From sequence record NC_110934.1: 64,000 bases of DNA. One strand, given 5' to 3'. Made by a program: the position numbers and the translations under genes. Of the stretch, positions 1,235 through 17,366 are shown in pieces. Origin of the DNA: Klebsiella phage KPP2018. Each line of letters opens with the position of its first letter. Position 1 is the stretch's first letter. The notes beneath the pieces are model-generated. The model worked only from the letters and a program-made list of their open reading frames with translations, did not search any database and was not told where the DNA came from.

Positions 1235-1308
1235 TTACCGCACTAAGGGGCACGACTCCCTTATCCGTAACAGTTGCAGGTGACGCAACTCGGTCCTACG
1301 CGAGTTCT

Positions 1309-2470: not shown

Positions 2471-2477
2471 TTCAAAC

Positions 2478-2548
2478 CTCTCTCATCAATTTATAAACAT
2501 ATTATAGCAAGAAAAGAGAGGTTTAGCAAATGAATTATTTCAGAATTT
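2478..2548 (-). promoter_or_regulatory. T5-type early promoter (-10 at 2501..2506, -35 at 2524..2529, 17-nt spacer)
   Basis: Motif family. Confidence 0.7.
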
Positions 2549-2894: not shown

Positions 2895-2969
2895 ATTACC
2901 TCCATTAAGTCTTTTAAATTAACCTAATGTGGATGAATTTTATTATACATATATTATGTACCTTTATAC

Positions 2970-3012
2970 AGAAAAACCCCAGACTACTTATTCAATAGCT
3001 GGGGTTTGTTAT
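2970..3012 (-). terminator. Rho-independent terminator (ccccagc...gctgggg plus a T-run) after CDS 3016..3321
   Basis: Hairpin followed by tttttctgtat on the minus strand. Confidence 0.6.
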
Positions 3013-3015
3013 TAA

Positions 3016-3321
3016 TTACAGATCGGGGCGTTCATCTTCGAACGCCACGAAGCCATCAAATTCATCATTTGAAATACCACCAGTATAGGTGATGTCCGCA
3101 ATCATCGCTTCCATTTTCCGGATCTCCGAGGTTTTCATGCCTGCTTTACTATTCTTATAGTATTTGCGAGGGTTCCCACACATCCAACAAGAACAGATGC
3201 AAGGAGTAGTAGTGACAATACCTAACCGCTTAGGGCTTTCTTCATGTGGAAAGATTGTCCAATACTTCTTGCGGTTGTTCTTCACACGTTGCCGGTGATG
3301 ACGTCTTAATGCTCGATCCAC
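3016..3321 (-). CDS. Cys-rich zinc-finger-like protein, 101 aa
   Basis: CICSCWMCGNP motif. Confidence 0.6.
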   Translation of the reverse strand: MDRALRRHHRQRVKNNRKKYWTIFPHEESPKRLGIVTTTPCICSCWMCGNPRKYYKNSKAGMKTSEIRKMEAMIADITYTGGISNDEFDGFVAFEDERPDL

Positions 3322-3402
3322 ACATTTCTCCTAAAACTTGGGAGATAAATGGAGTTTGCTCGACTACCTTGCGTAGTTCGGAGAAACCGTATCCAAACCC
3401 CA

Positions 3403-3771
3403 TTACATCGCCTGAGTAAATGTACGACTAATAACGTCGTTCTGTTGTTCACGAGTCAGTGCATTAAATCGAACAGCGTAGCCAGAGACACGGATGGTCA
3501 ACTGATGATATTTTTCAGGATGTTTCTGCGCATCCAAAAGCTGATCACGGCTTAACACATTGACATTTAGGTGCTGACCACCTTCGATTTGAGGGGCGAC
3601 TTCCACTTTGACTTCACGGAAGGCTTCGGGATCGAATTGTGGTGTGATACCTTCTAGATCTTCAACTAGAACTTTCTGTTTAAGTTCACCATTGTCGGAG
3701 TATAGCTGAATAATCTGATTTTCATGAACAAGGTTAATTACGCCAGATTTAAGATTTTGATATGCTTTCAT
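3403..3771 (-). CDS. Hypothetical protein, 122 aa
   Basis: ORF. Confidence 0.6.
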
Positions 3772-3813
3772 TAGATCTCCCCGATGTTAGAATTTGGCTC
3801 AGCTCTTTATTCT

Positions 3814-4008
3814 TTATACTTTTCCATAGTATACGGAAACTGTCTTACCAGTTTGGTTCATGACGTATGCTACTTCATCTTCTTTTAAAAAGATGGCTTG
3901 ATCTACTCCAACTATAGCCAATCTCTTATTTCTAGGATTAAAGCTTACGCTTTTGCCCGTATGGATATGTTCACCATTCTTGGCTGACATTATTTTAATT
4001 GTTAACAT
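3814..4008 (-). CDS. Hypothetical small protein, 64 aa
   Basis: ORF directly downstream of a tRNA. Confidence 0.45.
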   Translation of the reverse strand: MLTIKIMSAKNGEHIHTGKSVSFNPRNKRLAIVGVDQAIFLKEDEVAYVMNQTGKTVSVYYGKV

Positions 4009-4045
4009 AGCTGCTCCTAAATTTAGCTATCTCTAGCTATTTTAA

Positions 4046-4122
4046 TGGTAGTTAGTAGTGGATTTGAACCACTGTAGTCGCTCCGTATGAGGGAGGTGCA
4101 TAACCACTCTGCCAACTAACTG
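4046..4122 (-). tRNA. tRNA-Met/Ile2 (anticodon CAT); CCA encoded
   Basis: Cloverleaf read by hand; T-arm motif; anticodon loop CTCATAC. Confidence 0.7.
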
Positions 4123-4217
4123 TTATGTTTTACTAGACTAAGTAAGTATTCTTTATACTCTTTAGACCAATTAGCTTTTTTAAACTTTCCTGGACGCATA
4201 GTCTTAATTCCTAAATT

Positions 4218-4294
4218 TGGTACTCCGGGAGGGATTTAAACCCCCGATCTCTCGGTTATCAGCCGAGTGCTTTAGATCGCTAAGCTACCGAAGC
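4218..4294 (-). tRNA. tRNA-Ile (GAT)
   Basis: Hand fold; loop CTGATAA; CCA encoded. Confidence 0.75.
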
Positions 4295-4295
4295 A

Positions 4296-4502
4296 TTAAT
4301 ATTTAATTGCAGAACGTTTACCATTTCTAGGCGCATCTGGAAGTCGTGCACGTTCTGCCATTCTTCGCTTAATCTTTGAGATATTTTCTAGTGTTTGTTC
4401 TTCAGGCTTAATACCTGAAACACTACACCACTGATTACCATCCCATGCGGTAATGATCATAACACCATTACCCATAATCTTTTCTGTGAAAGTAATTCTC
4501 AT
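4296..4502 (-). CDS. Hypothetical protein, 68 aa
   Basis: ORF. Confidence 0.45.
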   Translation of the reverse strand: MRITFTEKIMGNGVMIITAWDGNQWCSVSGIKPEEQTLENISKIKRRMAERARLPDAPRNGKRSAIKY

Positions 4503-4795
4503 TATAGCAACTCATCTAAGCAAGAGGTATATTTAAGTTTACCATCTTTATCTACTTTGATTTCGACTTCCGCTCGTGGTACTTGACGAACTACACCATG
4601 AATCATCTTATAGCGAATGCCTTTAGCTGGTTCACGATCTTTTGGAAATACTTGCTTAACCGTTACTACCTTGAAACCCTCACGCGGTGTTAACACTACT
4701 ACTTGATCACCTTCTTTGATCTTCCAAGAGCTAGGAAATTCATAGGTATAGCGTTGACCACCAGTTTGGAACACAACAGAAAGATAACGTTTCAT
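4502..4795 (-). CDS. Hypothetical protein, 97 aa
   Basis: ORF; promoter at 4803..4873. Confidence 0.55.
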   Translation of the reverse strand: MKRYLSVVFQTGGQRYTYEFPSSWKIKEGDQVVVLTPREGFKVVTVKQVFPKDREPAKGIRYKMIHGVVRQVPRAEVEIKVDKDGKLKYTSCLDELL

Positions 4796-4802
4796 TTGGT
4801 TT

Positions 4803-4873
4803 CCCTCTCATTAATTTATATAAATATTATAACAATAAATAAGAGAGAAAGCAAATGAATTTTTAATAAAGTT
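4803..4873 (-). promoter_or_regulatory. T5-type early promoter (-10 at 4826..4831, -35 at 4849..4854)
   Basis: Motif family. Confidence 0.7.
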
Positions 4874-5057
4874 TAGTCACTTCATAAACTATACTACGAG
4901 ATTCTTTATTACGTTGTATTAAATTAGCATATGCTTCTTCAGCTTCATTTTTAGTATTAAAGTCTATAACGTGAGAGGTATTAGCTCTGTTTGATTGGCT
5001 ATACCAGATAACTACTAGGAGTTTAAACATACTAATCCTTAAATTGGTGCTGGGCAC
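4863..5057 (-). CDS. Hypothetical small protein, 64 aa
   Basis: ORF. Confidence 0.4.
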   Translation of the reverse strand: MPSTNLRISMFKLLVVIWYSQSNRANTSHVIDFNTKNEAEEAYANLIQRNKESRSIVYEVTKLY

Positions 5058-5131
5058 AGGATTCGAACCTGCAACGGGATTACTCCTCCTGATTACAAAT
5101 CAGGTGCATTCAACCATTCTGCCAACCCAGC
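5045..5131 (-). tRNA. Atypical 87-nt type-II-shaped tRNA (15-nt extra arm) with anticodon TGT (Thr) as read
   Basis: Acceptor GCTGGGT/GCCCAGC, A73, CCA encoded; anticodon loop TTTGTAA; extra arm AGGAGTAATCCCGTT. Confidence 0.6.
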
Positions 5132-5296
5132 AGAACCCGTTATTTCAACGGGATTTCTTTTTCAATAACAGGGGACTTGTCAGTCATGACTGTCATTGCC
5201 ATTTGTTGTAGAAATTCAAAGGTGAAGGCTACACGTTCTTCACCAATCTCTACTTCTACACGTTTCTTTTGTTTATCGATCTTGACTTTCAGATTA

Positions 5297-5518
5297 TCAG
5301 CCATCTTCGGGTTCTCGTTGCTGCGCTACTTCTAGCCAGTCTGGTAGAAGAAACTTTGTACGAAATTCTTCGTAAGTTTCTTTGGGATAAAAGCTAAAAC
5401 CTCCTTTCTCGTCATTCAGGATAACAGAGCCGTCAGTTTGTTCGTATGCTCGGTATGTTTCTCCAATAACAATAACTCGTTTATCGGTACTTTTATTACG
5501 AAATTCAAAAACGTGCAT
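5297..5518 (-). CDS. Hypothetical protein, 73 aa
   Basis: ORF. Confidence 0.5.
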   Translation of the reverse strand: MHVFEFRNKSTDKRVIVIGETYRAYEQTDGSVILNDEKGGFSFYPKETYEEFRTKFLLPDWLEVAQQREPEDG

Positions 5519-5534
5519 AACGTTTCCTTAAAGT

Positions 5535-5610
5535 TGGAGCGGCTAGAGGGAATCGAACCCTACTCAGCGAGGCTTGGAAGGCCTGCGACACAACCCGTGT
5601 GCTTAACCGC
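5535..5610 (-). tRNA. tRNA-Gly (TCC)
   Basis: Hand fold; loop CTTCCAA; short D-arm. Confidence 0.7.
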
Positions 5611-5618
5611 TTATTGTT

Positions 5619-5694
5619 TGGCTGGAGAAGGAGGAATCGAACCTACCATTAACGGAGTCAAAGGCCGTTGTGCTAACCGTTACACTACTCTCCA
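5619..5694 (-). tRNA. tRNA-Gln (TTG)
   Basis: U1:A72; loop CTTTGAC. Confidence 0.7.
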
Positions 5695-5700
5695 ATTATT

Positions 5701-5776
5701 TGGCTGGAGTGCCTGGGATCGAACCAGGAACCTTCGGAGTCAGAGGCCGACGATCTGCCAATTGATCTACACTCCA
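5701..5776 (-). tRNA. tRNA-Gln (CTG)
   Basis: U1:A72; loop CTCTGAC. Confidence 0.7.
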
Positions 5777-5784
5777 ATAACCCT

Positions 5785-5985
5785 TTACTCTACAGGAACC
5801 GTGGCGATTGGTTCTGGATCTTCTAAACGTTTGCCTTCATGATCTACTCGAATAACTCCGCATCCTTCGCAAATCACAACAGCACCGTAGCCTTCTTTAA
5901 CTTCAGCTTCTGTAATCAAACCAGAAAGATCACCAGTATCTCTGCCCCACATATCAATGGAGCATTGTTTGCAGAAATCAGCCAT
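5785..5985 (-). CDS. Zinc-ribbon small protein, 66 aa (two CxxC pairs)
   Basis: ORF. Confidence 0.5.
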   Translation of the reverse strand: MADFCKQCSIDMWGRDTGDLSGLITEAEVKEGYGAVVICEGCGVIRVDHEGKRLEDPEPIATVPVE

Positions 5986-6010
5986 ATTTTATTTCCTATT
6001 TAAGTTAATT

Positions 6011-6087
6011 TGGGGTGGCTAGTGGAATTCGAATCCACATAGGCCTGATTCACAATCAGGATCATTAACCAATTATGATATAGCCAC
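6011..6087 (-). tRNA. tRNA-His (GTG)
   Basis: Loop TTGTGAA; CCA encoded. Confidence 0.7.
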
Positions 6088-6300
6088 AATTGAAAACTCG
6101 CAGGGTTAGCGAAACCTTCCTCAATTAGCATGTTCTAGAATACTAATCAAGTTATCTCCTATTGCACGCAGCTCAAGACGAGTACGAATTTTCAATTGTG
6201 GCGGCTCTCCGAAACTCTTCTACTCTAGCCTTAGCAGCTTACTCCCGAACGCATGTCGGGAAAGTCTTACTAAGAGCATCAAATAGCACCGTTACACTTT
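6088..6300 (-). ncRNA. Candidate structured RNA: about 120-nt region closed by a 14-bp stem (ccacaattgaaaa...ttttcaattgtgg) next to tRNA-His
   Basis: Long perfect inverted repeat; no ORF; lies in a transcribed tRNA block. Confidence 0.3.
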
Positions 6301-6321
6301 GAGCCATAGATATATCAAGAA

Positions 6322-6440
6322 GCAGAAGGACTTGAACCTTCACGAGATAGACCATTTATCTCAGCCGCTTTATGAGGTATGTTGCAAGGAGTGGATGTTC
6401 CTTATAAACCTTTTAGGCAGCCCCGTCTACCGATTCCGGC
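6322..6440 (-). other. tRNA-like element with a perfect T-arm (GAAGG TTCAAGT CCTTC) but no acceptor pairing I could find
   Basis: T-arm motif at 6331..6347; the remaining cloverleaf could not be closed by hand. Confidence 0.3.
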
Positions 6441-6471
6441 ATACTTCAAGAATTTTTATAAACCAGCAGAA

Positions 6472-6645
6472 GCCTCATTTAAAGCATCAACAATAGCCTC
6501 ACGTTGGGTCATTCCATACCCGGTGGAATCTAGGTGTGGCAAATAAGCCTTCCATCCCTTATCTGTTTCATGAAGACATGCTTTAAATTTTGTACCATCC
6601 TTCATTGTTACAGTAACTGTTTTGCTCATAAGATTTCCTTATAGT
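6472..6645 (-). CDS. Small protein of about 57 aa (MSKTVTVTMKDGTKFKACLHETDKGW...)
   Basis: Hand-translated; shorter than the ORF-track cutoff. Confidence 0.35.
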
Positions 6646-6649
6646 TAAT

Positions 6650-6739
6650 TGGCAGAAGATAATGGAGTCGAACCATCACCGTATCGCTACAGCGGGCTGG
6701 TTTTCAAGACCAGTTACGTACCACTACGTCCTATCTTCT
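6650..6739 (-). tRNA. tRNA-Ser (TGA), type II
   Basis: Loop CTTGAAA; long extra arm; G73; CCA encoded. Confidence 0.75.
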
Positions 6740-6745
6740 ATTGTT

Positions 6746-6836
6746 TGGCGGAAGAGGAGAGATTTGAACTCTCAAGCCGTTTTACCAGTCAGCCACTTTC
6801 CAAGCGGTTTTCGTCGCCAATTCGATTTGCTCTTCC
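6746..6836 (-). tRNA. tRNA-Ser (GGA), type II
   Basis: Loop TTGGAAA; long extra arm; G73. Confidence 0.65.
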
Positions 6837-6860
6837 AATAATAAGATGATGCCTCTATCA

Positions 6861-6905
6861 CACCAGGCAGTTACGCCTCGCTGGGATTCGAACCCATTAA
6901 AACAG
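6861..6905 (-). other. Orphan T-arm or tRNA 3' fragment (TGGG TTCGAAT CCCA) with no matching 5' half
   Basis: T-loop motif only. Confidence 0.3.
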
Positions 6906-6948
6906 CTCAACCAAGATAGTAGGTTTAATTTACTCTGACCATCAAATT

Positions 6949-7025
6949 TGGTGCGTGACAAGGGATTCGAACCCTCAAAACCCGACTTCTAAGGACGGTA
7001 TGTATGCCAATTCCATCAATCACGC
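6949..7025 (-). tRNA. Atypical type-I tRNA with Leu anticodon TAG, A73 and a 5-nt variable loop
   Basis: Loop CTTAGAA; a T:T mismatch in the anticodon stem; CCA encoded. Confidence 0.55.
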
Positions 7026-7030
7026 ATGTT

Positions 7031-7109
7031 TGGTGGAGAATAACGGAATCGAACCGTTCTGATGTCCTCGGTGCAAGCGAGGTGTCCACTCCATGCAGAC
7101 CCATTCCCC
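7031..7109 (-). tRNA. tRNA-Ala (TGC) with a G3:U70 wobble
   Basis: Loop CTTGCAC; G3:T70 is the Ala identity pair. Confidence 0.75.
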
Positions 7110-7320
7110 AAATTCTTTAGTTTACTAAGGCTATTAGCTCGGCGTAACTACAGCACCTTCGCTTCAAGCGGAAGGAACCGCGTCATCTCGCAAACCCGAT
7201 ACACTATTCAGTTGCCGCTGAATCTAGTGGACTAATCTAGAACTTCTCCCGAATCGTAGGGATCGTGCTTTTTGGCAGCCAGTCCTAGGTCGAGCTAATA
7301 CCTTAGTGAACTATGATGAG
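7110..7320 (-). ncRNA. Candidate small RNA: about 210 nt, no ORF, hairpins, downstream of a T5-type promoter and upstream of the tRNAs
   Basis: Inverted repeats ccttcgc/gcggaagg and ctagtggactaatctag. Confidence 0.3.
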
Positions 7321-7326
7321 GATTTC

Positions 7327-7398
7327 TCCTCATCAATTTATATAAATATTATAACAAGAAATTAAGCATCAAGCAAGTACATTTTTAGCGATTTCTTG
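7327..7398 (-). promoter_or_regulatory. T5-type early promoter firing into the ncRNA/tRNA block
   Basis: Motif family. Confidence 0.7.
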
Positions 7399-7737
7399 TA
7401 GTTCCTTTACATCACGAACGTAAAGGTAATCAGAGCTTCCAGAGTGCATACTTTGCATAACCACACCTTCATCTGGTGCATTATCCTTCAGAGTAATTCC
7501 TAACCAGAACTCGGCAAAACTAGGTGTTATCTCACCTTGACTTGCCTTGAATACATCATATTCTGTAAGTTCTTGACCAGTAGATAATCCCAAATATACA
7601 GAACTAAGATCAATCTCTTTATGAGACTCATAAAACTCCGATAGATCCTTTTCCATATCCCAGCCATGCTGTAGCGCGAACTCCATTGTCACATGACCGA
7701 AATAACCTTGAATCTTGCTTGATAATTGCATTTGCAA
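7369..7737 (-). CDS. Hypothetical protein, 122 aa
   Basis: ORF. Confidence 0.6.
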   Translation of the reverse strand: MQMQLSSKIQGYFGHVTMEFALQHGWDMEKDLSEFYESHKEIDLSSVYLGLSTGQELTEYDVFKASQGEITPSFAEFWLGITLKDNAPDEGVVMQSMHSGSSDYLYVRDVKELQEIAKNVLA

Positions 7738-7756
7738 TTCCTTATTTTGAGTTAAT

Positions 7757-7830
7757 TGGTACTCGGTGATAGAATCGAACTATCGCAACCGCCGTGTAAA
7801 GACGGGGTTCTCCCATTAAACTAACCGAGC
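7757..7830 (-). tRNA. tRNA-Val (TAC)
   Basis: Loop TTTACAC. Confidence 0.7.
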
Positions 7831-7834
7831 AATT

Positions 7835-7913
7835 TGGTAGATCGCCTGGGACTCGAACCCAGAACCTTCCGATTAAAAGTCGGATGCTACTAAACCTATT
7901 GAGCTAGCGATCT
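7835..7913 (-). tRNA. tRNA-Lys (TTT)
   Basis: Loop CTTTTAA. Confidence 0.7.
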
Positions 7914-7916
7914 ATT

Positions 7917-8084
7917 AGTAACCATTGTATACTTCTTTAATAGAGTGAACCTTCAAGTAAGGGTGATTAGTATTAAACTCTGACATTACTTCATCCCAAT
8001 TTTTACCATAATGGGCAAGTAAGGATTTTGATGTATTCTTACCTGAACGTTTGTCGCTTACTACTAATCGAAATACTTTCATTT
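7917..8084 (-). CDS. Small protein of about 55 aa (MKVFRLVVSDKRSGK...)
   Basis: Hand-translated. Confidence 0.35.
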
Positions 8085-8102
8085 CGAAATCCCCTATTAA
8101 AA

Positions 8103-8180
8103 TGGAAGCGGGTGCAGGAATCGAACCTACCTCTTTCTAGCTTATGAGACTAGTGATCTCTACCAGAGATCTAACCCGCA
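8103..8180 (-). tRNA. tRNA-Met/Ile2 (CAT) with a 1:72 mismatch
   Basis: Loop CTCATAA. Confidence 0.65.
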
Positions 8181-8186
8181 ATTGTT

Positions 8187-8262
8187 TGGTCAGTGCGGCA
8201 GGACTCGAACCTGCGACCCGAAGCATCCAAGGCTCCCACGCTACCAACTGCGCTACGCACTG
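8187..8262 (-). tRNA. tRNA-Pro (TGG) with C1:G72
   Basis: Loop CTTGGAT. Confidence 0.75.
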
Positions 8263-8303
8263 TTAATTCTTTTATTGTGGAGGAATATTAATAATTCGTC
8301 CGT

Positions 8304-8471
8304 CTACACAATAAACGGTACTAGGAATTGTACTATATATATGTAGAAATTCTTTATATTACTCTCCCCGCCACAGAAATTTTTAGCAAATTCATACTCT
8401 TTATTAATGGTTGAGTCAAATTTAAAACAACCAGTAAGTAGGAATACAGATAGTAATAAAATTTTCTTCAT
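8304..8471 (-). CDS. Small lipoprotein, 55 aa (lipobox LLTGC)
   Basis: Hand-translated MKKILLLSVFLLTGCFKF...; promoter at 8478..8552. Confidence 0.45.
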   Translation of the reverse strand: MKKILLLSVFLLTGCFKFDSTINKEYEFAKNFCGGESNIKNFYIYIVQFLVPFIV

Positions 8472-8477
8472 TTAGCT

Positions 8478-8552
8478 TTCCTTCTCTTCACTTTATAAAA
8501 TATATTATACAGATAATTAAGCAGAATAGCAAATGAATTTTTAATAAATTTA
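8478..8552 (-). promoter_or_regulatory. T5-type early promoter
   Basis: Motif family. Confidence 0.7.
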
Positions 8553-8559
8553 CTTATTG

Positions 8560-8683
8560 TGTAGGCCACCTGGAGGCTACCAACCCCACGGCTGACAAAG
8601 AAGTTTGCGAGACCTCTCTTAAATGCCAGAATAGATCCGCCGATCTATCGGAACCTACATAATAAGTAAACTTTATAGTGTCA
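8560..8683 (-). ncRNA. Unassigned non-coding stretch with hairpins inside the tRNA block
   Basis: No ORF and no tRNA fold found. Confidence 0.2.
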
Positions 8684-8804
8684 TTCTAGACAGGACTCGA
8701 ACCTGTTATCACTTGTGCGGACTTACGAGAACCATTCTTTCACTCGAATCGAACGAGCTTCTGCCCTCGCCAAGCTGGTTTCCCCGTCAACCACGCTAGA
8801 ATGT
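8684..8804 (-). other. 120-nt tRNA-like element: acceptor-like closing stem ATTCTAG/CTAGAAT enclosing two T-arm hairpins; no CCA
   Basis: Two T-arm motifs (GCTCG TTCGATT CGAGT and ACAGG TTCGAGT CCTGT). Confidence 0.4.
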
Positions 8805-8924
8805 TTAATTGTTTTCAGTGCAAGAGTCCGAGTCTTGGACACGACCGCTTCGCAAGTACATAGGCAGCTTATCATGAATCAGCACTTCCGAATTGCTAGC
8901 TCCGTGTTCTGCACTGAAATTTTA

Positions 8925-9272
8925 TTAGTTTAACCGTAAAGTATTATCTACTTCACCATTAATTGTTCGGCATTCTTCTGGGATTGCCGGGGTGGCCTTG
9001 TATTCCCACCATTCAGAACCGTCATATTCACCACGTTCTAACCAAGTTCCATCAGTAAACCATACGTTACCATAAAGCAATTGTCCACCGAAACCAGAAT
9101 CATATTTAAAGTCTAGATTATTTAGAAAATCTTCAATATCTTTTTCTGTATAACCTACGGGTAATACCCAAACTTCTTTGTCCCCATAATAACCGAATTC
9201 TATCTTAATACACTTAACTTCAGACTTAGTATTCTTTAGGGCAAGTAACAACTCTTCTTTAGCATTAATCAT
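8925..9272 (-). CDS. Hypothetical protein, 115 aa
   Basis: ORF. Confidence 0.6.
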   Translation of the reverse strand: MINAKEELLLALKNTKSEVKCIKIEFGYYGDKEVWVLPVGYTEKDIEDFLNNLDFKYDSGFGGQLLYGNVWFTDGTWLERGEYDGSEWWEYKATPAIPEECRTINGEVDNTLRLN

Positions 9273-9298
9273 AACATATTTCTCGTGCTAGTTTAATT

Positions 9299-9375
9299 TG
9301 GCGCGACCGATGGGATTCGAACCCACATTCTCTCCAGTGACAGGGGAGTACCATTACCAAGCCAGCCCCGGTCGC
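9299..9375 (-). tRNA. tRNA-Asp (GTC); copy 1 carries a C31:U39 mismatch (9336 a), whereas copy 2 has a paired G
   Basis: Loop CTGTCAC; G73; the one SNP found between the copies. Confidence 0.75.
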
Positions 9376-9384
9376 ATAATTCAT

Positions 9385-9570
9385 TTACTCAGCTTTGAGT
9401 TTTTCAATAGCTGCATTAAGTTCCTTAAGAAACTCTTTTCGTACATTAAGACGATTAAGACTTACTAGTATATCATGTTTAAGTTCTTCGATATATTTCT
9501 TCTCAACTTCAATATTGTTGATAGTGCTATCACGATGAACTTCTAGCTGCGCAATTACATTCTTGGACAT
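9385..9570 (-). CDS. Coiled-coil small protein, 61 aa
   Basis: ORF. Confidence 0.45.
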   Translation of the reverse strand: MSKNVIAQLEVHRDSTINNIEVEKKYIEELKHDILVSLNRLNVRKEFLKELNAAIEKLKAE

Positions 9571-9672
9571 GCTTGTTTCCTCAGTTATTAATAAAAATGG
9601 TATCTGTGGCTGAATTCGATATCAGCAATGATAGCTGGTTGGCTACCGGTTTACTTAACTCTACACAGAATT

Positions 9673-9755
9673 TGGCGGGCCGTGTAGGATTCGAACCTAC
9701 GTTGTCTTTCGACATGGATTAACAGTCCACCGCCAAACCGCTTGGCTAACGACCC
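9673..9755 (-). tRNA. tRNA-Asn (GTT) with an unusual 13-nt extra arm
   Basis: Loop CTGTTAA; extra arm GTCGAAAGACAAC. Confidence 0.65.
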
Positions 9756-9907
9756 TAAATTTATATTGCTGACTAGGATTTTCACCTAGACGGAGTTAGC
9801 ACCGTAGCGTGTAGCGGCATACCCCTCCAAACCGTGCCTCATCTTTCAATTACGGAGACAGTGTTCCTACGCGTGCCTGAATTGATTTAACAATTCTTTC
9901 AGCAAAT
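9756..9907 (-). ncRNA. Unassigned structured non-coding stretch between tRNA-Asn and tRNA-Cys
   Basis: Hairpins; no ORF. Confidence 0.2.
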
Positions 9908-9983
9908 TGGACGACCGCATGAGATTTGAACTCACATAAGAAGGATTTGCAATCCTTCTCCTAAGCCATTCAGCCAACGGTCG
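9908..9983 (-). tRNA. tRNA-Cys (GCA), U73
   Basis: Loop TTGCAAA. Confidence 0.75.
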
Positions 9984-10007
9984 ATTTATCTTGTTCTGTC
10001 ATGTTGC

Positions 10008-10075
10008 TCCCCCAGTTCAATTTATGTAATTATTATACAGAACTTTTGGAAACTAAGCAACTACATTTTTTAAGA
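10008..10075 (-). promoter_or_regulatory. T5-type early promoter firing into the tRNA block
   Basis: Motif family. Confidence 0.65.
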
Positions 10076-10340
10076 ATTTGATGCCTTTCTTTCTCTTCTT
10101 ATATTTCCACGTTAATGGATTCTGTCGATTATGAACACTTGAGATCTTTGTCTCATCAAAGTTCTTCAATATCATGTAATCACAAGATAGTTGTTCTAAT
10201 GGAATGTGATCACCGTCAAAAGCGTGTACATAAGGTTGTTGACTAGCACGATAATGATAGACTTTGTTAATTCTACGTTTCAGCGACTTATCCGCGCAGT
10301 AAATAAAGAAGTTTTCAGGATGCATCAGCAGCTCCTTCAA
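10053..10340 (-). CDS. Hypothetical protein, 95 aa
   Basis: ORF. Confidence 0.55.
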   Translation of the reverse strand: MKELLMHPENFFIYCADKSLKRRINKVYHYRASQQPYVHAFDGDHIPLEQLSCDYMILKNFDETKISSVHNRQNPLTWKYKKRKKGIKFLKNVVA

Positions 10341-10417
10341 TTTGGTGCACCCTGTTCGTATCGAACGAACCTCTCAAGCTCTTCAGGCAAGCGCTAATCC
10401 ATCTCAGCTAAAGGTGC
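10341..10417 (-). tRNA. tRNA-Phe (GAA)? The anticodon stem is weak
   Basis: Loop CTGAAGA; two T:T mismatches in the stem. Confidence 0.45.
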
Positions 10418-10424
10418 AAATTTT

Positions 10425-10495
10425 GGCAGGGGTAAAGGTATTCGAAACCTTTTCATGGGTTTTGGAGGCCCATTTGCAACCTATGCGTACCCCAA
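10425..10495 (-). tRNA. tRNA-Trp (CCA), compact 71 nt with a reduced D-arm
   Basis: Loop CUCCAAA, as in E. coli tRNA-Trp. Confidence 0.55.
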
Positions 10496-10504
10496 TTATT
10501 AATT

Positions 10505-10578
10505 GGCACACCCAACGAGGATCGAACTCGTGTTCCCACTGTGAAAGAGTGGTGTCCTAACCGCTAGACGATAGGTGC
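10505..10578 (-). tRNA. tRNA-Glu (TTC)
   Basis: Loop CTTTCAC. Confidence 0.7.
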
Positions 10579-10585
10579 ATTAAAT

Positions 10586-10673
10586 TGGTGGGGAAAGATG
10601 GAGTCGAACCACCCGAGTCGCAATGACAACTGATTTACAGTCAGCTCTGCTACCACTTACAGAATATTTCCCC
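10586..10673 (-). tRNA. tRNA-Tyr (GTA), type II
   Basis: Loop CUGUAAA; A73. Confidence 0.75.
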
Positions 10674-10803
10674 ATATTTAGAAGTATTCAAAAATTCTCA
10701 TTTAAACACTTTTAAATATGTTTCCAAATTAGATAAATATTATATCAAGTTTTATAGTATTGGGCAAGTCAAATTTTAAAGAACTTGCCCAATGCTGTAT
10801 TAG

Positions 10804-11079
10804 TTAGTCGAACTTAGGAGTGACAGTTAAGGAGAACGGAAGTTCAAAAACTTCTTCGCCCTCATCACTAATAGTGATTACACGACCTTTAAGTTCAGAC
10901 ATTGAAATATCAATATCAGCTTTTGCATCTGGAGCCATGCCAGCTTCAATACATTTAGCTTTAATTTCCGGCAGAAGTTCTACATCGTAGAAATAAAGCC
11001 ATTCAATCTCACCTTCCCAGCCTTCCCAGGATTTACAGATTGCACTTTCAATACCAGCAGCTATAACACGATTTTGCAT
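10804..11079 (-). CDS. Acidic hypothetical protein, 91 aa
   Basis: ORF; promoter at 11088..11162. Confidence 0.6.
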   Translation of the reverse strand: MQNRVIAAGIESAICKSWEGWEGEIEWLYFYDVELLPEIKAKCIEAGMAPDAKADIDISMSELKGRVITISDEGEEVFELPFSLTVTPKFD

Positions 11080-11087
11080 TCGTTAAC

Positions 11088-11162
11088 TCCTTCATCAATT
11101 TATATAACTATTATATCAGAAATTTAAAGCAAAAGGCAAGTACATTTTTAAAAATTCTGTTT
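11088..11162 (-). promoter_or_regulatory. T5-type early promoter
   Basis: Motif family. Confidence 0.7.
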
Positions 11163-11169
11163 GGAGGAG

Positions 11170-11376
11170 CTAAACTCCAGATTCTTCAGCCAAGTCTAGA
11201 CTAATAAGAGATATAGCCATAATTGCTGCTCCGTGCTCTTTTTCTCCAGTCTCTTTAGCTAGAGTTATAATATCAAGAAATTGCTTATGAAAATCTGCAA
11301 CCTCTTGAGTTATACCTGCCTCAGCAATCATGCCTTTAAGCATGAAGCGTTGTGCGGTAATTTCAGGATTAGCCAT
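11170..11376 (-). CDS. Hypothetical protein, 68 aa
   Basis: ORF. Confidence 0.5.
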   Translation of the reverse strand: MANPEITAQRFMLKGMIAEAGITQEVADFHKQFLDIITLAKETGEKEHGAAIMAISLISLDLAEESGV

Positions 11377-11551
11377 GTTGTTTCTCCAGTTTCATCTTTA
11401 ATAGTCTACAAATAAAATCAATGTCTTCATCCGTGCCTAGATCTCTATCTTCAAGGGTTGCCTTGAAGTTTTTAGTCAATTCCATGAGAATAACTTCTCT
11501 AGAACGACGTGTTGGCGGAGGTGGATGTCTATACATCTTATTTCCTTAATT

Positions 11552-11628
11552 TGGTAGGGGTGGTGGGATTCGAACCCACAAAACCTGAATTTTAAGTCCA
11601 GTACCTATGCCAATTCGATTACACCCCC
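11552..11628 (-). tRNA. Atypical type-I tRNA with Leu anticodon TAA, A73 and a 5-nt variable loop
   Basis: Loop CTTAAAA. Confidence 0.55.
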
Positions 11629-11635
11629 ATGTAGT

Positions 11636-11824
11636 TTAGTCAATTACTTTTGAGGCTTCAAGGTAGTCGATATAGTGTACGTTTTCTACCGTAATCATAT
11701 AATCCGCCACTTTATCCATAGCTTGGGCTTCAGAGGTAGCTCTGGCTAACCTATATCCTTTTCTATACTCATCCGGGTATTCTCTATCTTGAATAAACAC
11801 AACATAAACTATATATAGATCCAT
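11636..11824 (-). CDS. Hypothetical protein, 62 aa
   Basis: ORF. Confidence 0.45.
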   Translation of the reverse strand: MDLYIVYVVFIQDREYPDEYRKGYRLARATSEAQAMDKVADYMITVENVHYIDYLEASKVID

Positions 11825-11843
11825 TTGTGACCTCTATTTAATT

Positions 11844-11921
11844 TGGTGGCTCCCCGAGGATTCGAACCTACGTACCTTCCGGTTATGAGCCGGGTGCTCA
11901 TACCATATGAGCTTGAGAACC
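11844..11921 (-). tRNA. tRNA-Met/Ile2 (CAT); the third CAT tRNA
   Basis: Loop CTCATAA. Confidence 0.6.
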
Positions 11922-11927
11922 AAAATC

Positions 11928-12016
11928 TGGCGGAAGAAGTGGGAATCGAACCCACAAGGCTATATTTCAAACCGACAGATTAGCAATCTGCTGCAATACC
12001 ATTATGCTATTCTTCC
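11928..12016 (-). tRNA. tRNA-Ser (GCT), type II
   Basis: Loop TTGCTAA; G73. Confidence 0.75.
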
Positions 12017-12037
12017 GAATTTATAAGATATATTATA

Positions 12038-12607
12038 TTAGAAATTTAGCTTCATAGCAAGAAAATTTTTCAAGTTTTCGGTAGACATCTCATCCACATC
12101 TACAGGAGAAACAAATCCATTTAATTGTCTAGCAAACTTTTCACCAGCAGGATCATTGTCCCCAACAGCTACCAATTTAAAAGGTAGTAATTTCAGTTGC
12201 TTTAATAACGCTTTTCCTGGAGAAGAACCCAACATTGCCAGGGCTGGATAACCCGCATTATGTAATGCAACTGCCTTAAATACAGATTCAGCAATCAATA
12301 CTACTTTTTCATCCCCATTGAGAGTTTCTAGTCCCCATACACACTGTGTAGTAGAATAAGTAAAGTATTTAGCTTCAAAGGGGCACTTACCATGACCTTT
12401 TGGAGCAGAAGGATTATAAGTTTGATAGCCCCTCAACATTCCAGAGAAATCATACAACGGGACTGTTAGCCACCCTTCCGGACTTAACCAGCAATGATAT
12501 TTATCTGTATCAAATCCTCTAGATAAGAGGTGCTGTGTTAGCTCATCAACATTCATATTTGGTTCCTCTCTCAAATTTATAGATATATTATACAGAGAAT
12601 TTAGCAT
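12038..12607 (-). CDS. TOPRIM-domain protein (small primase-like), 189 aa
   Basis: VVLIAES...VAVGDNDPAG resembles the Toprim E and DxD motifs. Confidence 0.55.
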   Translation of the reverse strand: MLNSLYNISINLREEPNMNVDELTQHLLSRGFDTDKYHCWLSPEGWLTVPLYDFSGMLRGYQTYNPSAPKGHGKCPFEAKYFTYSTTQCVWGLETLNGDEKVVLIAESVFKAVALHNAGYPALAMLGSSPGKALLKQLKLLPFKLVAVGDNDPAGEKFARQLNGFVSPVDVDEMSTENLKNFLAMKLNF

Positions 12608-12625
12608 TCAAGCAATCAAATTTTT
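12548..12625 (-). promoter_or_regulatory. T5-type early promoter
   Basis: Motif family. Confidence 0.7.
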
Positions 12626-12731
12626 TAACTTTTTAGAGGAAAATCATAGGGCACTTAAGGGTAGCAGATAAGTGGTGAGGACCAAAATTTGTGACCCCAC
12701 TAAAAATCCAGGGGCAATTTTTAAAGACCCC

Positions 12732-12760
12732 TTGACATTTTCGCTGGGGTAGTGTAAAGT
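12732..12760 (+). promoter_or_regulatory. Sigma70 promoter (TTGACA, 17-nt spacer, TG-TAAAGT) for the plus-strand low-complexity operon; copy at 42196..42224
   Basis: Read directly. Confidence 0.6.
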
Positions 12761-12822
12761 ATATGTTATGGATGAGTGATCAAAGAGACACACATTTTCT
12801 ATATACTAGGAGGTGTCAAAAA

Positions 12823-13593
12823 ATGACAGAAGAAGTAGCTAAGAGTCCTGAGACCGTCGCTAGCGTTGCAGCAGAACTGCACCGTCACGAGGAATCAGAT
12901 AAGAAAAAGTGGGAGAAGGTCAGAGCCTACGAAGAGAAACATCGTGAACACGATGAAGATGATGAAGAAGATGACGATGATGAGTATTGTCATAAATATG
13001 GAAAACGTAAAATGCAAGAACCAGTAAACGTATTCACTAGTGGCTTCCCTGGCCTAATGGGTGGTTACCCAGCAAACGCAGGTGCTTTCGGTGGTGAAGG
13101 TATGGGACTATTCGGAGCTATCCTAATCGGTGCTCTATTAACAGGCGGATTCGGTGGTTTTGGTGGATTTGGTGGACGTGGTGTAGTTGGTGAAGGTACC
13201 GCAGTTGATGCAGTACTTCAGAACCAAGATACCGCTAGTATTCTAGCAGCTATTAACACTACTCGTACAGAAGCTAACCAGGGTACTGGAGCTGTTTTAA
13301 GCGCAGTTAACAATGGTTTTAGCCAGACATCCCAAAACCAGAGCCGTGATACTCAGTCTGTACTAACTACGATCTATGGTACGGGTGCTAATCTGTCTAA
13401 TCAAATCTGCCAGGAAACTCGCAACGTTATTCAGGGTCAGTTCGATCTTTCTCGCCAGATTGATCAATCTTTCGCAGCTAACCAGATAGCTCGTGCACAA
13501 GATAAGTTTGATTCTGCACAGATCGCTTTCCAGCAGACTTTACAAACTAATAACCAGTTTGCCGCTGTTCAGGCTCAGATGTGTGCTAACCAG
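12823..13593 (+). pseudogene. 5' 257 codons of the Gly-rich/acidic protein gene (intact copy 42287..43279), cut off by the repeat junction
   Basis: Identical to copy 2 up to 13593, then reads into unrelated sequence. Confidence 0.85.
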
Positions 13594-13899: not shown

Positions 13900-14112
13900 A
13901 TGATCCGCAACGTTTCTCTTGCACGTTCGAAAGGCTTTAAGCTGGTGGATGCTAACACGTTCGAGCGGGAAGATTGTAAAATCGAATATGTAGCACGTAA
14001 CAAAAATGCCTTTCGTGTTACTGAGAAAAAATTTGATAAGCGCGGCAACGTGATCGCTGAAACGGTTAAGCACTTTGCCACCTTTTACGCTGCGTTTCGT
14101 GGGGTACTATGA
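13900..14112 (+). CDS. Hypothetical protein, 70 aa
   Basis: ORF; its stop overlaps the next start (ATGA). Confidence 0.5.
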   Translation: MIRNVSLARSKGFKLVDANTFEREDCKIEYVARNKNAFRVTEKKFDKRGNVIAETVKHFATFYAAFRGVL

Positions 14113-14580: not shown

Positions 14581-14735
14581 AAAAGTTTTTAATAGCTGGC
14601 ATGTTTCCGTTGTTGCCTTATGTAATTTGCTGGGCTTTATACGCTCATGGCGCTAGTGTTCCCGCTGTGGCTTCATTTGGTGTATCGGCGGGCTTTCTAG
14701 CTGGACTATTAGCAAGCGTATACTTACGCAAATAA
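14577..14735 (+). CDS. 52-aa membrane peptide
   Basis: MKKFLIAGMFPLLPYVICWALY...; start overlaps the upstream stop. Confidence 0.45.
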   Translation: MKKFLIAGMFPLLPYVICWALYAHGASVPAVASFGVSAGFLAGLLASVYLRK

Positions 14736-14754
14736 TTAATAATGGGGCGTTATT

Positions 14755-14949
14755 ATGAGCAATAAAATTGTTGTAACCAAAATCAGTACAATGGTTGATG
14801 TTTTTTACGTGCCCGATACGCCGGAAAACCGACAAGCGGTCGAGCGTGGAGAATATGATAAAGTGATTTATGATCACGATGGTTATTATCAGCATTTAGT
14901 GGATTCCTACGGGGAGGAGGAGAAGATCACGCATCGACTACCAGACTAA
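14755..14949 (+). CDS. Hypothetical protein, 64 aa
   Basis: ORF. Confidence 0.5.
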   Translation: MSNKIVVTKISTMVDVFYVPDTPENRQAVERGEYDKVIYDHDGYYQHLVDSYGEEEKITHRLPD

Positions 14950-14983
14950 TAATCACGGGGCGCAACTATCAGGAAGTGCCCCC

Positions 14984-15013
14984 AATTCTCAAATGAGAAT
15001 GATTCTCATTTGA
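14984..15013. repeat. Perfect 23-bp palindrome caaatgagaatgattctcatttg
   Basis: Read directly; the same core recurs in iteron family 1. Confidence 0.8.
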
Positions 15014-15233
15014 CCGCGCCCGCGATGGTTAGCCTGCTAATGGTTAGGGTGTTACGTGTCGCCTTGTGTGATCGTTAGCGTGCTAACTAATTTTCAAGCC
15101 TCCTTCAATTTTGCCCTTGTTTTAGTATCCCCAACAAAATTAAACGCGTTAGAATGCGTTTGAGAGCGTTTTAACGCTATATTAGAATTATTCACTGCGT
15201 AGGAATACTGTATATTTATACAGTAGGATAAGC

Positions 15234-15242
15234 TGTGGATAA
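15234..15242 (-). promoter_or_regulatory. DnaA box (TTATCCACA on the minus strand)
   Basis: Plus strand reads tgtggataa, the exact consensus. Confidence 0.7.
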
Positions 15243-15245
15243 GTC

Positions 15246-15254
15246 TGTTGATAA
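15246..15254 (-). promoter_or_regulatory. DnaA-like box (TTATCAACA, 1 mismatch)
   Basis: Plus strand reads tgttgataa. Confidence 0.5.
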
Positions 15255-15306
15255 CGCTTCAAAACGGCTAGAATTTTGTCAAGTCAAATCGTGCTGTTAG
15301 TAAGTC

Positions 15307-15315
15307 TGTGGATAA
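15307..15315 (-). promoter_or_regulatory. DnaA box (TTATCCACA)
   Basis: tgtggataa; the flanks repeat the first box (aagtctgtKgataac). Confidence 0.7.
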
Positions 15316-15392
15316 CTTAAATAACAGTGTTTCTCACTTCCGTTCTTAAATGAGAATCATTATCATTTGCATTTCACTATCTAACTAATAAT

Positions 15393-15525
15393 CATTCCGC
15401 TTTTTAAATGAGAATCATTCCGCTTTTTAAATGAGATTGATTCTCATTCCGCTTTTTAAATGCGAATTATTATCATTCTCATTCCGCTTTTTAAATGAGA
15501 ATGATTCTTATTATCATTCGTATTT
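15393..15525. repeat. Iteron family 1: 4 direct copies of cattccgctttttaaatgagaat(N)att at 15393, 15416, 15445 and 15480, each with a palindromic aaatgagaat/attctcattt core
   Basis: Read directly. Confidence 0.85.
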
Positions 15526-15551
15526 AGCGCAGGGCAATTGCCCTGCGCTTT

Positions 15552-16153
15552 TGTGCAAATCCGACATTGCTCCACGGGTGTTACGTGCGGGCGTGTATGT
15601 GCGAATCCGACAATCTTTGGTAGTGTGCAAATCCGACCCGAAAAATTTTTATAGTGTGCAAATCCGACAATGAATTTTCCCAAAAACTCCAGCAATCTCG
15701 AACTGCGTTCGAATCCTGTGGGGTATGTGCAAATTCGACACGGTTTTTCTAGGATTAAGATGTGCAAATCCGACAAGATTTTTGTGACTTCGATTGGAGG
15801 GTGTGTGATTGTGTGGGTTTGGGGAGAAGATGAGAGAGCGAGAGAAAATAAGGGAAGAAACTGGAGGAGCAGCATGGGTGGCGTGTAACGCCTGATTTGC
15901 TGCGTTTTTGGGGAAGAGTTGAGAAGATTTGGGTTAATTGGGCTTGGGGCGAGATAAAGTAAAATTTTATTAGCAAAATGGGGCAAAATAGCTTGACAAG
16001 TGAAAATTCCTGTGGCTCTAAAAACTCAGGCAATCATGGGCCTTCGGCCCGAAATAATGCTGCTATTTTCAGGAGATTATATGTGCCTAAAAACTTAGGC
16101 ATTTGTGCAAATCCGACCATAAATTTCTAGAAACACAATGTGCAAATCCGACA
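15552..16153. repeat. Iteron family 2: 8 copies of TGTGCAAATCCGACA (0-1 mismatches) at 15552, 15598, 15624, 15655, 15726, 15761, 16104 and 16139
   Basis: Read directly. Confidence 0.85.
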
Positions 16154-16584
16154 GTAATTTCTGGAAATGTGTTTTCAAAAAATGTCTCCTAGAAATAACC
16201 GCCCTCCCTATAACCGCCCTGTATTAAACCGCCTAGTATATGTTCCTAGAAACTTAGGAGAACCGCCCACTAGAAGCGTGATATCTCGTGGGTATTTCGT
16301 GAGAACTCTGGAGTTTCTAGGAAAGTGTATGTGATCCTAGAGATGGGGAGCGGCAACAGGTGTATCATCTTGAACACAGATATTGCCTTTAAATATATTC
16401 GTATGTTTTAAAAGTAAATGATCCCCCATTTCATGTGAGATTCCTCGTGGGGCGCGTGAGTATTACGGAAGAACTCTAATATTGGCCCGCGCTAAGACTA
16501 GCCGCTATAGCACAGACGCAAATAGAGTTGTAATAATCATCGCCCCTAGAGTTCACAATAAGAGTTATTGTTAATCTATGAGAT

Positions 16585-16614
16585 TATTATAACATACATT
16601 TTTAATAACGTCAA
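16585..16614 (-). promoter_or_regulatory. Sigma70 promoter on the minus strand (TTGACG, 18 nt, TATAAT) firing leftward into the GC-rich block
   Basis: Read directly; overlaps the stop of CDS 16611..17366. Confidence 0.55.
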
Positions 16615-17366
16615 GAAGATTTTGCTAACGTTTTTGGATTCTTCCTGGCTTTGAGATATATCCCTTTAGATGCTAGGTAAATATATGTTGCTAGGAATGA
16701 AGATTCTGATCCCGATTCCTCATAGGTTAACGTACCTCTAGGGTATTTATTTGTTTTAGGAGCATAGTTAAGCACAGCCGCAGTTAATGATCCTAATCCT
16801 AGAACATCCGCAAGACGTCTAAAGGTATTCTCTTCATCATGAATAGCATAAAGAATGTTATCTTCAATATCCGTTAATGGAATCTTACGGATATGAGATA
16901 CTGCAATCCGTGCTATCATAGCTCCAATTGTTTTATTAATATCCTCGAAAGAAACACTCTCCATATATTTTAGAGGGGGAAGATGGTCATATTTACATTT
17001 CTTAGGCGGAATAAGAAGTTGTTCAGGGTAAGCCTCTAGTGCCTGACGAACGTTTGCTTCTGGATATGTTGGCAAAGGTTCATCTATAATAACATGTAAA
17101 AAGTTAGCTCTATGCCCTTTAGCAGTTGGATCTAAAGACTTGAGTACTTTATTCATATCCACATATGAATATGCTAGGTCTGCTTGAGGAGCATTAATAT
17201 CAAACTTAATCTTCTTGCCCTCCCATTTAGCAGGGAACATCTCACAAACAAACATTACTGCATGTTTGACGTCTGGCTCTAGCTCTGATAGACATTTGTG
17301 ATCTGCTGTTACTGCTAAAGCGAGTATATTCTTAAATTTATTAGCTTCTTCAATCATATATCCCAT
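16611..17366 (-). CDS. Hypothetical protein, 251 aa
   Basis: ORF. Confidence 0.7.
   Translation of the reverse strand: MGYMIEEANKFKNILALAVTADHKCLSELEPDVKHAVMFVCEMFPAKWEGKKIKFDINAPQADLAYSYVDMNKVLKSLDPTAKGHRANFLHVIIDEPLPTYPEANVRQALEAYPEQLLIPPKKCKYDHLPPLKYMESVSFEDINKTIGAMIARIAVSHIRKIPLTDIEDNILYAIHDEENTFRRLADVLGLGSLTAAVLNYAPKTNKYPRGTLTYEESGSESSFLATYIYLASKGIYLKARKNPKTLAKSS

Follow-up and report, generated by a model that had tools for sequence, protein, structure and literature searches.

Transfer of phage T5 DNA into the host cell stops at 8% of the genome, and the reason for the stop has reportedly been a question since Lanni in the 1960s. The cis-acting stop at ~8% has been mapped by position alone, in T5 and in BF23. 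One T5 record (AY692264) labels positions 9140-10144 as "injection stop signal", and the region, which forms the untranslated end of the left terminal repeat, is called Repeat Region 3 by Davison (10.1101/866236). In a second record (AY587007) the stretch that matches the DNA described here carries the labels palindrome D (palD), inverted repeats D' and C', direct repeat C (DRC) copies 1-4, palindromes E-J, the major 7.9% nick, and copies of direct repeat D (DRD). The T5 shear point, which marks the end of the first-step DNA, lies at ~9618, inside DRC copy 4 (9607-9637). The repeat array itself is therefore known and named in T5, without an assigned function. In the Davison preprint (10.1101/866236) the classical stop model is considered purely descriptive and the function of the repeats impossible to guess; a 2023 paper states that experimental work on the region is lacking, and a 2026 preprint that the mechanism of second-step transfer is poorly understood. 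The stop is independent of phage protein synthesis and is absent in FhuA proteoliposomes; thus, a cellular factor acting at the cis site is expected. Here we analyze the corresponding repeat array in a 64,000-nt stretch of Klebsiella phage KPP2018 (NC_110934.1; hereafter the window, with positions counted from its first letter). The palindromes of this array have the sequence features of operators for the host iron-responsive repressor Fur, and Fur is a likely ligand.

The phage of the window belongs to the T5-like group (Demerecviridae). A 1.2-kb region that includes the array matches 566 phage records; those inspected, from phages that infect Salmonella, Escherichia, Klebsiella, and other hosts, are without exception T5-like. 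The 1.2-kb region has no match among 72,556 plasmids. Positions 15120-15600 are covered to at least 80% in 433 of 567 matching phage records. A three-way alignment that includes T5 and Spc35 shows collinearity of the window with T5 9194-9900 and of the array itself with T5 9468-9637, and the T5 shear point maps to the counterpart of DRC unit 4 of the window. The flanks agree: palindrome J (palJ) and the DRD repeats follow the array on the right, and on the left it is preceded by palD and two DnaA-box pairs. This is the element order of T5 Repeat Region 3 (palD, DnaA-box pairs, DRC with its palindromes, palJ with the nick, DRD), at an identity of ~85%, and its place, flanked by pre-early and early genes and in the end part of the terminal repeat, is probably also that of T5. 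The convergent arrangement of pre-early (+) and early (-) genes is also seen. However, the window differs from T5 in having an extra isolated palindrome upstream and in the number and length of its units. It also lacks the left part of the repeat, with dmp, A1, and A2, owing to a junction at 13593/13594, where that part is replaced by a duplicate of the tRNA region. By alignment and element order, the array is the "direct repeat C/palindromes E-I" block of a T5-type injection-stop region.

The sequence CATTCCGCTTTTTAAATGAGAAT occurs four times in the 64 kb, at 15393 (0 mismatches), 15416 (1), 15445 (1), and 15480 (0), giving an array span of 15393-15502 and start-to-start distances of 23, 29, and 35. 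Its chance expectation is 0.00 (100 dinucleotide shuffles), and the 64 kb hold no fifth copy. A sequence-only reading of this DNA had proposed a four-copy family with a palindromic core at just this spacing, and both the family and the spacing are borne out. A repeat finder recovers two weaker family members further upstream, at 15334 and 15369, and shows that every unit holds part of the AAATGAGAAT/ATTCTCATTT palindrome. On the + strand, DRC unit 1 (15393..15415, 23 bp) joins the spacer CATTCCGCTTTTT to the half palindrome AAATGAGAAT, unit 2 (15416..15444, 29 bp) contains the palindrome AAATGAGATTGATTCTCATTC, unit 3 (15445..15479, 35 bp) contains the extended palindrome AAATGCGAATTATTATCATTCTCATTC, and unit 4 (15480..15525) contains AAATGAGAATGATTCTTATTATCATTCG. 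The design common to the units is a set of Fur-type hexamers (GAGAAT, ATTATC, or ATTCTC) arranged as a 7-1-7 palindrome and followed by a spacer of 8-9 bp. The unit lengths of 23, 29, and 35 bp differ by whole hexamers, that is, by 6 bp, the period of the Fur hexamer. Upstream of the four units lies a further Fur-like block (TTAAATGAGAATCATTATCATTTGC, block 1; 15346..15370, without strand), which corresponds to T5 DRC copy 1/palindrome E. The variant palindrome that had been placed at 15343..15366 is real and corresponds to AAATGAGAATCATTATCATTT at 15348-15368, one mismatch from the perfect palindrome. The perfect palindrome that had been placed at 14990..15012 also exists and is slightly longer than was described: it reads TCAAATGAGAAT-G-ATTCTCATTTGA (12+1+12, 25 bp; 14989..15013, without strand), a Fur-box-like 7-1-7 element with 0 mismatches to AAATGAGAATNATTCTCATTT. 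At up to three mismatches, AAATGAGAATNATTCTCATTT has six sites in the window, all within 14991-15513, where 0.01 would be expected. The isolated palindrome is present in most close relatives and not in T5, and Vibrio phage valsw3 has two sites resembling it at the same relative location.

For a quantitative comparison, a symmetrised 19-bp Fur matrix was constructed from 14 E. coli regions that had been footprinted or gel-shifted, each contributing its best site, with region coordinates from Chen et al. 2007 (PMC2189734) and sequences from MG1655 and an iucA plasmid. True Fur sites score between 9.7 and 22.3 bits in leave-one-out tests (median 16.4). The top five matches of the 64 kb all lie in the array region, at 15497 in unit 4 (20.5 bits, the top of the window), 15346 and 15352 in block 1 (19.2 and 18.6), 15462 in unit 3 (17.3), and 14995 in the isolated palindrome (16.7). 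Lower scores are found at 14989 in the isolated palindrome (14.0 bits, 6 bp from 14995), 15404 in unit 1 (a weak match of 12.1), 15427 and 15433 in unit 2 (12.0 and 12.2), 15456 in unit 3 (14.7), and 15491 and 15503 in unit 4 (12.3 and 10.2). The matches thus stand in a 6-bp register, as pairs (14989/14995, 15346/15352, 15427/15433, and 15456/15462) and as a triplet (15491/15497/15503). Overlapping native Fur sites likewise sit in 6-bp (or 3-bp) register (Chen et al. 2007, PMC2189734). The 550 bp from 14980 to 15530 contain 10 of the 18 matches of at least 12 bits in the window, and the remaining 49.8 kb of unique sequence contain no site of 16 bits or more. None of 5000 dinucleotide shuffles reached the observed counts, and none of 1000 column-permuted matrices performed as well. 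A matrix made from 72 distinct phage sites correlates with that of E. coli Fur at r = 0.89, and at r = 0.85 over the flanks that had not been used in seeding.

Judged by matrix score, register, and correlation, the palindromic core is a Fur box, equivalent in sequence to Fur operators. A known operator family, that of host Fur, therefore accounts for the motif, an outcome that the sequence-only reading had named as one that would overturn its proposal of a binding array for a dimeric initiator or repressor. The dimeric repressor survives, given that the cores match the Fur operator as footprinted sites do; the label of iteron, with its initiator, does not. The accompanying remark, that the surroundings show no obvious gene for a binding protein, is correct as far as the window goes, but the best candidate protein is encoded by the host rather than by the phage. 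The related regulator Zur was also considered and set aside: in a comparison by eye with its consensus, GAAATGTTATAATATAACATTTC, the AAATG/CATTT flanks are common to both and about 10 of 19 core positions agree.

Individual native operators show how close the resemblance is. The aerobactin operator GATAATGAGAATCATTATT, confirmed upstream of iucA, has 15 consecutive bases in common with 15349-15363 (AATGAGAATCATTAT). On the E. coli chromosome, 15341-15374 is matched best by two promoters, those of mntH and gpmA. At mntH, which is Fur-repressed, the matching sequence TTAAATGAGAATGATTATC adjoins an MntR-type palindrome in ~1000 genomes. At gpmA, an exact 19-mer, AATGAGAATCATTATCATT, is common to the promoter and block 1 in one E. 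coli strain; gpmA is gel-shifted by Fur (Chen et al. 2007, PMC2189734). The clustered Fur operators of iucA P1, mntH, gpmA, and fhuF (PMC2189734) resemble the window array in the range of their 19-bp scores and in their 6-bp register, and those of iucA, mntH, and gpmA contain the same GAGAAT-N-ATTATC core. Native clusters comprise 1-14 sites over 19-142 bp; with ~12 sites over ~180 bp, the window array is at the upper end. Unlike native operators, the array does not overlap a recognizable promoter, and it lies in a virulent phage, between convergent units and with no gene downstream. In addition, its blocks are parted by 8-9 bp spacers of conserved length, which makes it a regular array rather than one continuous footprint.

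The exact palindrome AAATGAGAATNATTCTCATTT is also present in at least 120 stretches of bacterial genomes from many phyla. When 150 open reading frames (ORFs) starting within 300 bp of AAATGAGAATNATTCTCATTT were scanned for families, the commonest neighbors were FUR regulators (12), ZnuA-type metal-binding proteins (11), Fe(III)-type binding proteins (7), and TonB-dependent receptors (6-7), followed by AhpC (5), ferritin (5), FeoA/FeoB (3), and siderophore monooxygenases (3). Other regulators of the Fur family may account for some of the ZnuA and FUR cases. In the gamma- and beta-proteobacteria the neighbors include TonB-dependent receptors, iron-binding proteins, and an Fe(II) transport protein. 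A Fur-like cluster of 21.9 bits, CTAAATGATAATGAAAATCATTTGCATTT, was also seen in E. coli 95-3322 (L274 2490-2560; chromosome ~424430-424470), where small hypothetical genes surround it in an apparent prophage or island.

Conservation was assessed in 22 distinct T5-like segments, each comprising the 650 bp to the left of the first DRD repeat. Relatives were collected record by record; a 251-aa neighbor protein gave 3 loci, and a T5-specific DNA pattern gave 9 IMG/VR stretches. Between 4 and 10 sites of at least 12 bits are present in 21 of the 22 segments, with maxima of 17.6-23.9; the same number range applies to Erwinia KEY, Klebsiella Sugarland, Pectobacterium My1, and Vibrio valsw3. The LexA-like box, the DnaA boxes, and the Fur-like palindromes recur in the same order in Erwinia phage KEY, Klebsiella phage Sugarland and a relative, Pectobacterium phage My1, and Vibrio phage valsw3. 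In distant relatives the spacers have changed (CCGCTTTTT, CAACTTCCT, CAGCTTATC). In valsw3 (L270 1850-1915 and 2260-2300) the DRD repeats GTGCAAATCCGACA are replaced by GAGTGCGGATTCTATGT; thus, the right-hand repeat family is specific to a lineage, whereas the part with LexA-like, DnaA, and Fur-like elements is common.

Similar arrays are found in phages unrelated to T5. Escherichia phage anhysbys (Phapecoctavirus, a myovirus group of 149 kb) has a triplet of intergenic Fur-like palindromes (L016 2499-2590, equal to NC_052656 ~43383-43474), and members of its group (also L133 and L054) have 3-5 near-identical palindromes with Fur scores up to 21.4 bits. IMG/VR viral contigs also contain Fur-like palindromes, 4-6 of them to a dense array (L040 ~5780-5910, L079 ~1950-2230, L120 ~5000-5230, and L111 ~11400-11650); in L040 and L079 the array is directly upstream of terminase genes. 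These arrays share with the window palindromes of the form AAATGA(G/T)AAT-N-ATT(C/A)TCATTT, with 3-6 per array, but they have other flanks, with no LexA or DnaA boxes nearby. Fur-box arrays may therefore be a wider feature of phage genomes.

We estimate at roughly 60% the probability of the overall proposal, in which the array, as the DRC block of a T5-type injection-stop region, is bound by host Fur and the complex most likely is part of the cis signal that pauses transfer. Within this proposal, Fur binding to the array is likely, and a role of Fur in the injection pause is possible. Pre-existing host Fe(II)-Fur dimers would load on ~six blocks (~10-12 overlapping sites, ~180 bp) as the DNA enters, and also on the isolated palindrome 350 bp upstream. 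This loading would take place beside the LexA box and the two DnaA-box pairs, so that the last of the first-step DNA would be coated by host proteins on entry. The resulting complex would be part of the cis signal that holds transfer at ~8% until release by phage A1/A2. It might act by anchoring or condensing the DNA end, or as a roadblock to RNA polymerase that, in reading out of the pre-early operon, would otherwise pull DNA through the boundary. The proposal resembles the DnaA-box model of Davison, in which membrane-bound DnaA holds the incoming DNA, in that pre-existing host DNA-binding proteins read conserved boxes of the injection-stop signal; in the window, 30-110 bp separate the DnaA boxes from the array to their right. 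However, the Davison model makes no use of the DRC array. Furthermore, Fur is cytoplasmic and is not known as a membrane-bound protein, and the anchoring argument does not transfer to it. A broader version, in which the boundary of the first-injected DNA in Demerecviridae is a landing pad composed solely of operators for host regulators already in the cell (a LexA box, four DnaA boxes, and the Fur boxes), with pad occupancy setting the occurrence and length of the entry pause and the two-step injection so gated by the iron and SOS state of the host, is speculative and, in our estimate, unlikely.

Several observations weigh against a role for Fur in the pause, or against Fur itself. There is one systematic difference between the phage and E. 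coli sites: position +/-4 is G in the former and mostly T in the latter. Native Fur sites with G at +/-4 exist; it is conceivable that another protein of similar specificity is the ligand. In addition, duplication gave rise to the four units, and matches within one genome are therefore not independent. The architecture can do without the array, given that Serratia phage Slocum retains DnaA boxes and DRD repeats but lacks Fur-like sites. With respect to the T5 shear point, the array belongs to the DNA that has already been injected, and proteins bound to it therefore cannot plug the channel from outside. Inactivation of Fur derepresses FhuA, the T5 receptor, so iron-starved hosts would show the lowest Fur occupancy. 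Nor does the array look like a regulatory region of the usual kind. The promoter scan inside it gives promoter-like matches of 9/12 at best, and a Fur-controlled promoter is unsupported since these are weak; on neither strand is there a gene downstream of the array before the hairpin or the pre-early genes are reached. The array could also have a role unrelated to the stop.

Other explanations draw on the same evidence. The palindromes might be sites for a phage protein, foremost the dimeric DNA-binding pre-early protein A2, alone or with A1, and the likeness to Fur operators would then be coincidence or mimicry. A1 and A2 are needed for second-step transfer and must act on or near the region, the array is conserved along with the two-step lifestyle, and the G at +/-4 departs from the commonest E. 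coli Fur base. However, the stop needs no phage protein synthesis, the same palindromes occur at bacterial iron-regulon promoters, and the same palindrome arrays occur in unrelated phages (anhysbys and several IMG/VR contigs) that have no T5-like region in the stretches read. We regard this explanation as quite improbable; A2 might nevertheless bind at the array beside Fur. The array might also be a signal for packaging or for processing of the terminal repeat, used in concatemer cutting and repeat duplication, with Fur perhaps an accessory like IHF at lambda cos. In T5 and Spc35 the array is within the terminal repeat, ~500 bp short of its right end, and next to the major 7.9% nick site, a location that would suit such a function, and the L040 and L079 arrays occupy the usual place of cos or pac, directly upstream of terminase genes. 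Yet nothing links the T5 terminase to the region, the repeat boundaries disagree between two T5 records (9749 vs 10139), and the two supporting contigs that were found have arrays that could equally be operators of a packaging-operon promoter; the probability of a packaging signal seems very low.

The classical idea is that such palindromes act as DNA structure, with hairpins or cruciforms that stall passage through the channel formed by tail and envelope. Secondary structure has been invoked repeatedly in the literature, and single-stranded 15334-15556 does fold at -37.1 kcal/mol vs -16.8 kcal/mol in shuffles (z = -7.1). But this stability is mostly due to the GC-rich palJ hairpin and to base pairs that join different repeat units; the individual palindromes are short and AT-rich. 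Their arms also vary independently: one-arm changes number 198 and compensating changes 13, and at the free position +/-4 the arms are complementary in 35 of 72 sites, where ~37 would be expected. Independent variation of the arms fits a protein operator rather than a hairpin under selection. The DNA by itself does not halt transfer, as is evident from complete ejection through FhuA proteoliposomes in vitro, and we assign to a purely structural stop a chance as small as that of a packaging signal. The original label of replication-origin iterons, bound by an initiator and accompanied by DnaA boxes, is hardly credible. Direct repeats beside four DnaA boxes and a second family, DRD, do superficially resemble a plasmid-type oriV. 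However, no gene for a Rep-type initiator is adjacent, the 23/29/35 spacing is irregular and not helically phased, and a known operator family explains the motif. In T5 the replication origins are near the center of the genome, and the replication genes are silent while just the first-step DNA is inside (Davison, 10.1101/866236). A plasmid origin was dropped from consideration, the 1.2 kb region having no match in the plasmids searched.

To the left of the array, the palindrome TACTGTATATTTATACAGTA (15206..15225, without strand) corresponds to T5 palD and agrees with the SOS-box consensus, TACTGTATATATATACAGTA, at 19 of 20 positions, which makes it a LexA box-like element. Its CTGT-N8-ACAG is kept in 17 of the 22 T5-like segments, and the box is also present in Erwinia KEY, Klebsiella Sugarland, and Vibrio valsw3; the T5 annotation (AY587007) names the element just "palindrome D". 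The first DnaA-box pair (15234..15254, - strand) consists of TGTGGATAA, gtc, and TGTTGATAA, that is, a consensus box and a variant 3 bp apart, an arrangement that matches the description of IRD' by Davison (10.1101/866236). The second pair (15295..15315, - strand; TGTTAGTAA, gtc, TGTGGATAA) is the counterpart of T5 IRC'. Between the DnaA boxes and the first Fur-like block lies an imperfect palindrome, AAATAACAGTGTTTCTCACTT (15321..15341). This element has a poor Fur matrix score and is present in every T5-like segment examined, Slocum included (AAATGAGAGTGTTTCTCACTT). To the right of the array, a GC-rich hairpin, AGCGCAGGGCAA/TTGCCCTGCGCT, is followed by TTTTG (15526..15553, + strand) and has a stable fold; it corresponds to T5 palJ, the location of the major 7.9% nick (AY587007), and falls under the threshold of the terminator scan. 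The DRD repeats GTGCAAATCCGACA follow in at least six copies (15553..15776, + strand) and form a separate family, the T5 "direct repeat D". An Rfam scan of 14700-16700 returned nothing at the gathering score, the weak matches being driven by AT-rich sequence and the hairpin.

Three copies of another repeat family, ATGGTTAGCCTGCTA, lie at 15025-15085, between the isolated palindrome and the LexA-like box. They are possibly related to the AATAACGTAAGGTGA(C/T)TAATGATT repeats that stand in place of Fur-like sites in Slocum (L140 5700-6600); in Erwinia KEY (L137 6480-6560) both Fur-like sites and AATAACGTAAGGTGA(C/T)TAATGATT repeats are present. On the + strand of this region, the best promoter-like match (15160-15188, TTGAGA-17-TAGAAT, 10/12) immediately precedes the LexA-like box; its direction is across the DnaA boxes and the array to the palJ hairpin. 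Since its -35 part is not conserved in T5, the match may lack promoter function.

The small genes of pre-early type stop at 14949 (+) and the early genes at 16611 (-), and the array region therefore lies between convergent transcription units. Conserved hypothetical phage proteins of small size, from PHROG families of unknown function, are encoded by the neighboring genes, together with a small pre-early endonuclease family. A 70-aa ORF (13900-14112, +), immediately to the left of the untranslated region, matches PHROG 4227 (E = 1e-49), which is described as an endonuclease that nicks abasic sites made by the host uracil glycosylase, a small pre-early gene of host takeover.

The record itself has an anomaly. 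Positions 1-13593 of the window, with early genes and 21 tRNA genes, duplicate 29465-43057 at a distance of 29,464 bp with a single mismatch, at 9336. The first copy runs directly into the end part of the terminal repeat, which leaves the window without dmp, A1, and A2. The 13593/13594 junction occurs in none of 348 related phage records, and the duplicated arrangement is probably a mis-assembly, a construction artefact, or a rearranged record. The junction is 1.8 kb from the array, and the analysis of the array is unaffected.

Neither the Fur-box reading of the array nor the LexA-box reading of palD is present in the literature searched. No publication joining Fur with T5-like phages was found, and priority in Wang 2005, Heusterspreute 1987, or Davison 2015 is possible; the Davison preprint (10.1101/866236) does not mention LexA and does not use "fur" in the sense of a Fur box. 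Reading these elements as candidate Fur and LexA sites makes the question of the 8% stop open to simple experiments, for which mutants and reagents already exist. Without Fur binding, the array is still a well-conserved operator-like element that needs a protein partner. If Fur does bind, a virulent phage would be using the metal-sensing repressor of its host outside promoter control, and the similar arrays in other phage groups suggest that the case may not be unique. Should the landing pad at the boundary of the first-injected DNA prove to be real, the arrays of unrelated phages would point to a wider, unrecognized use of host Fur, architectural or sensing, by virulent phages.
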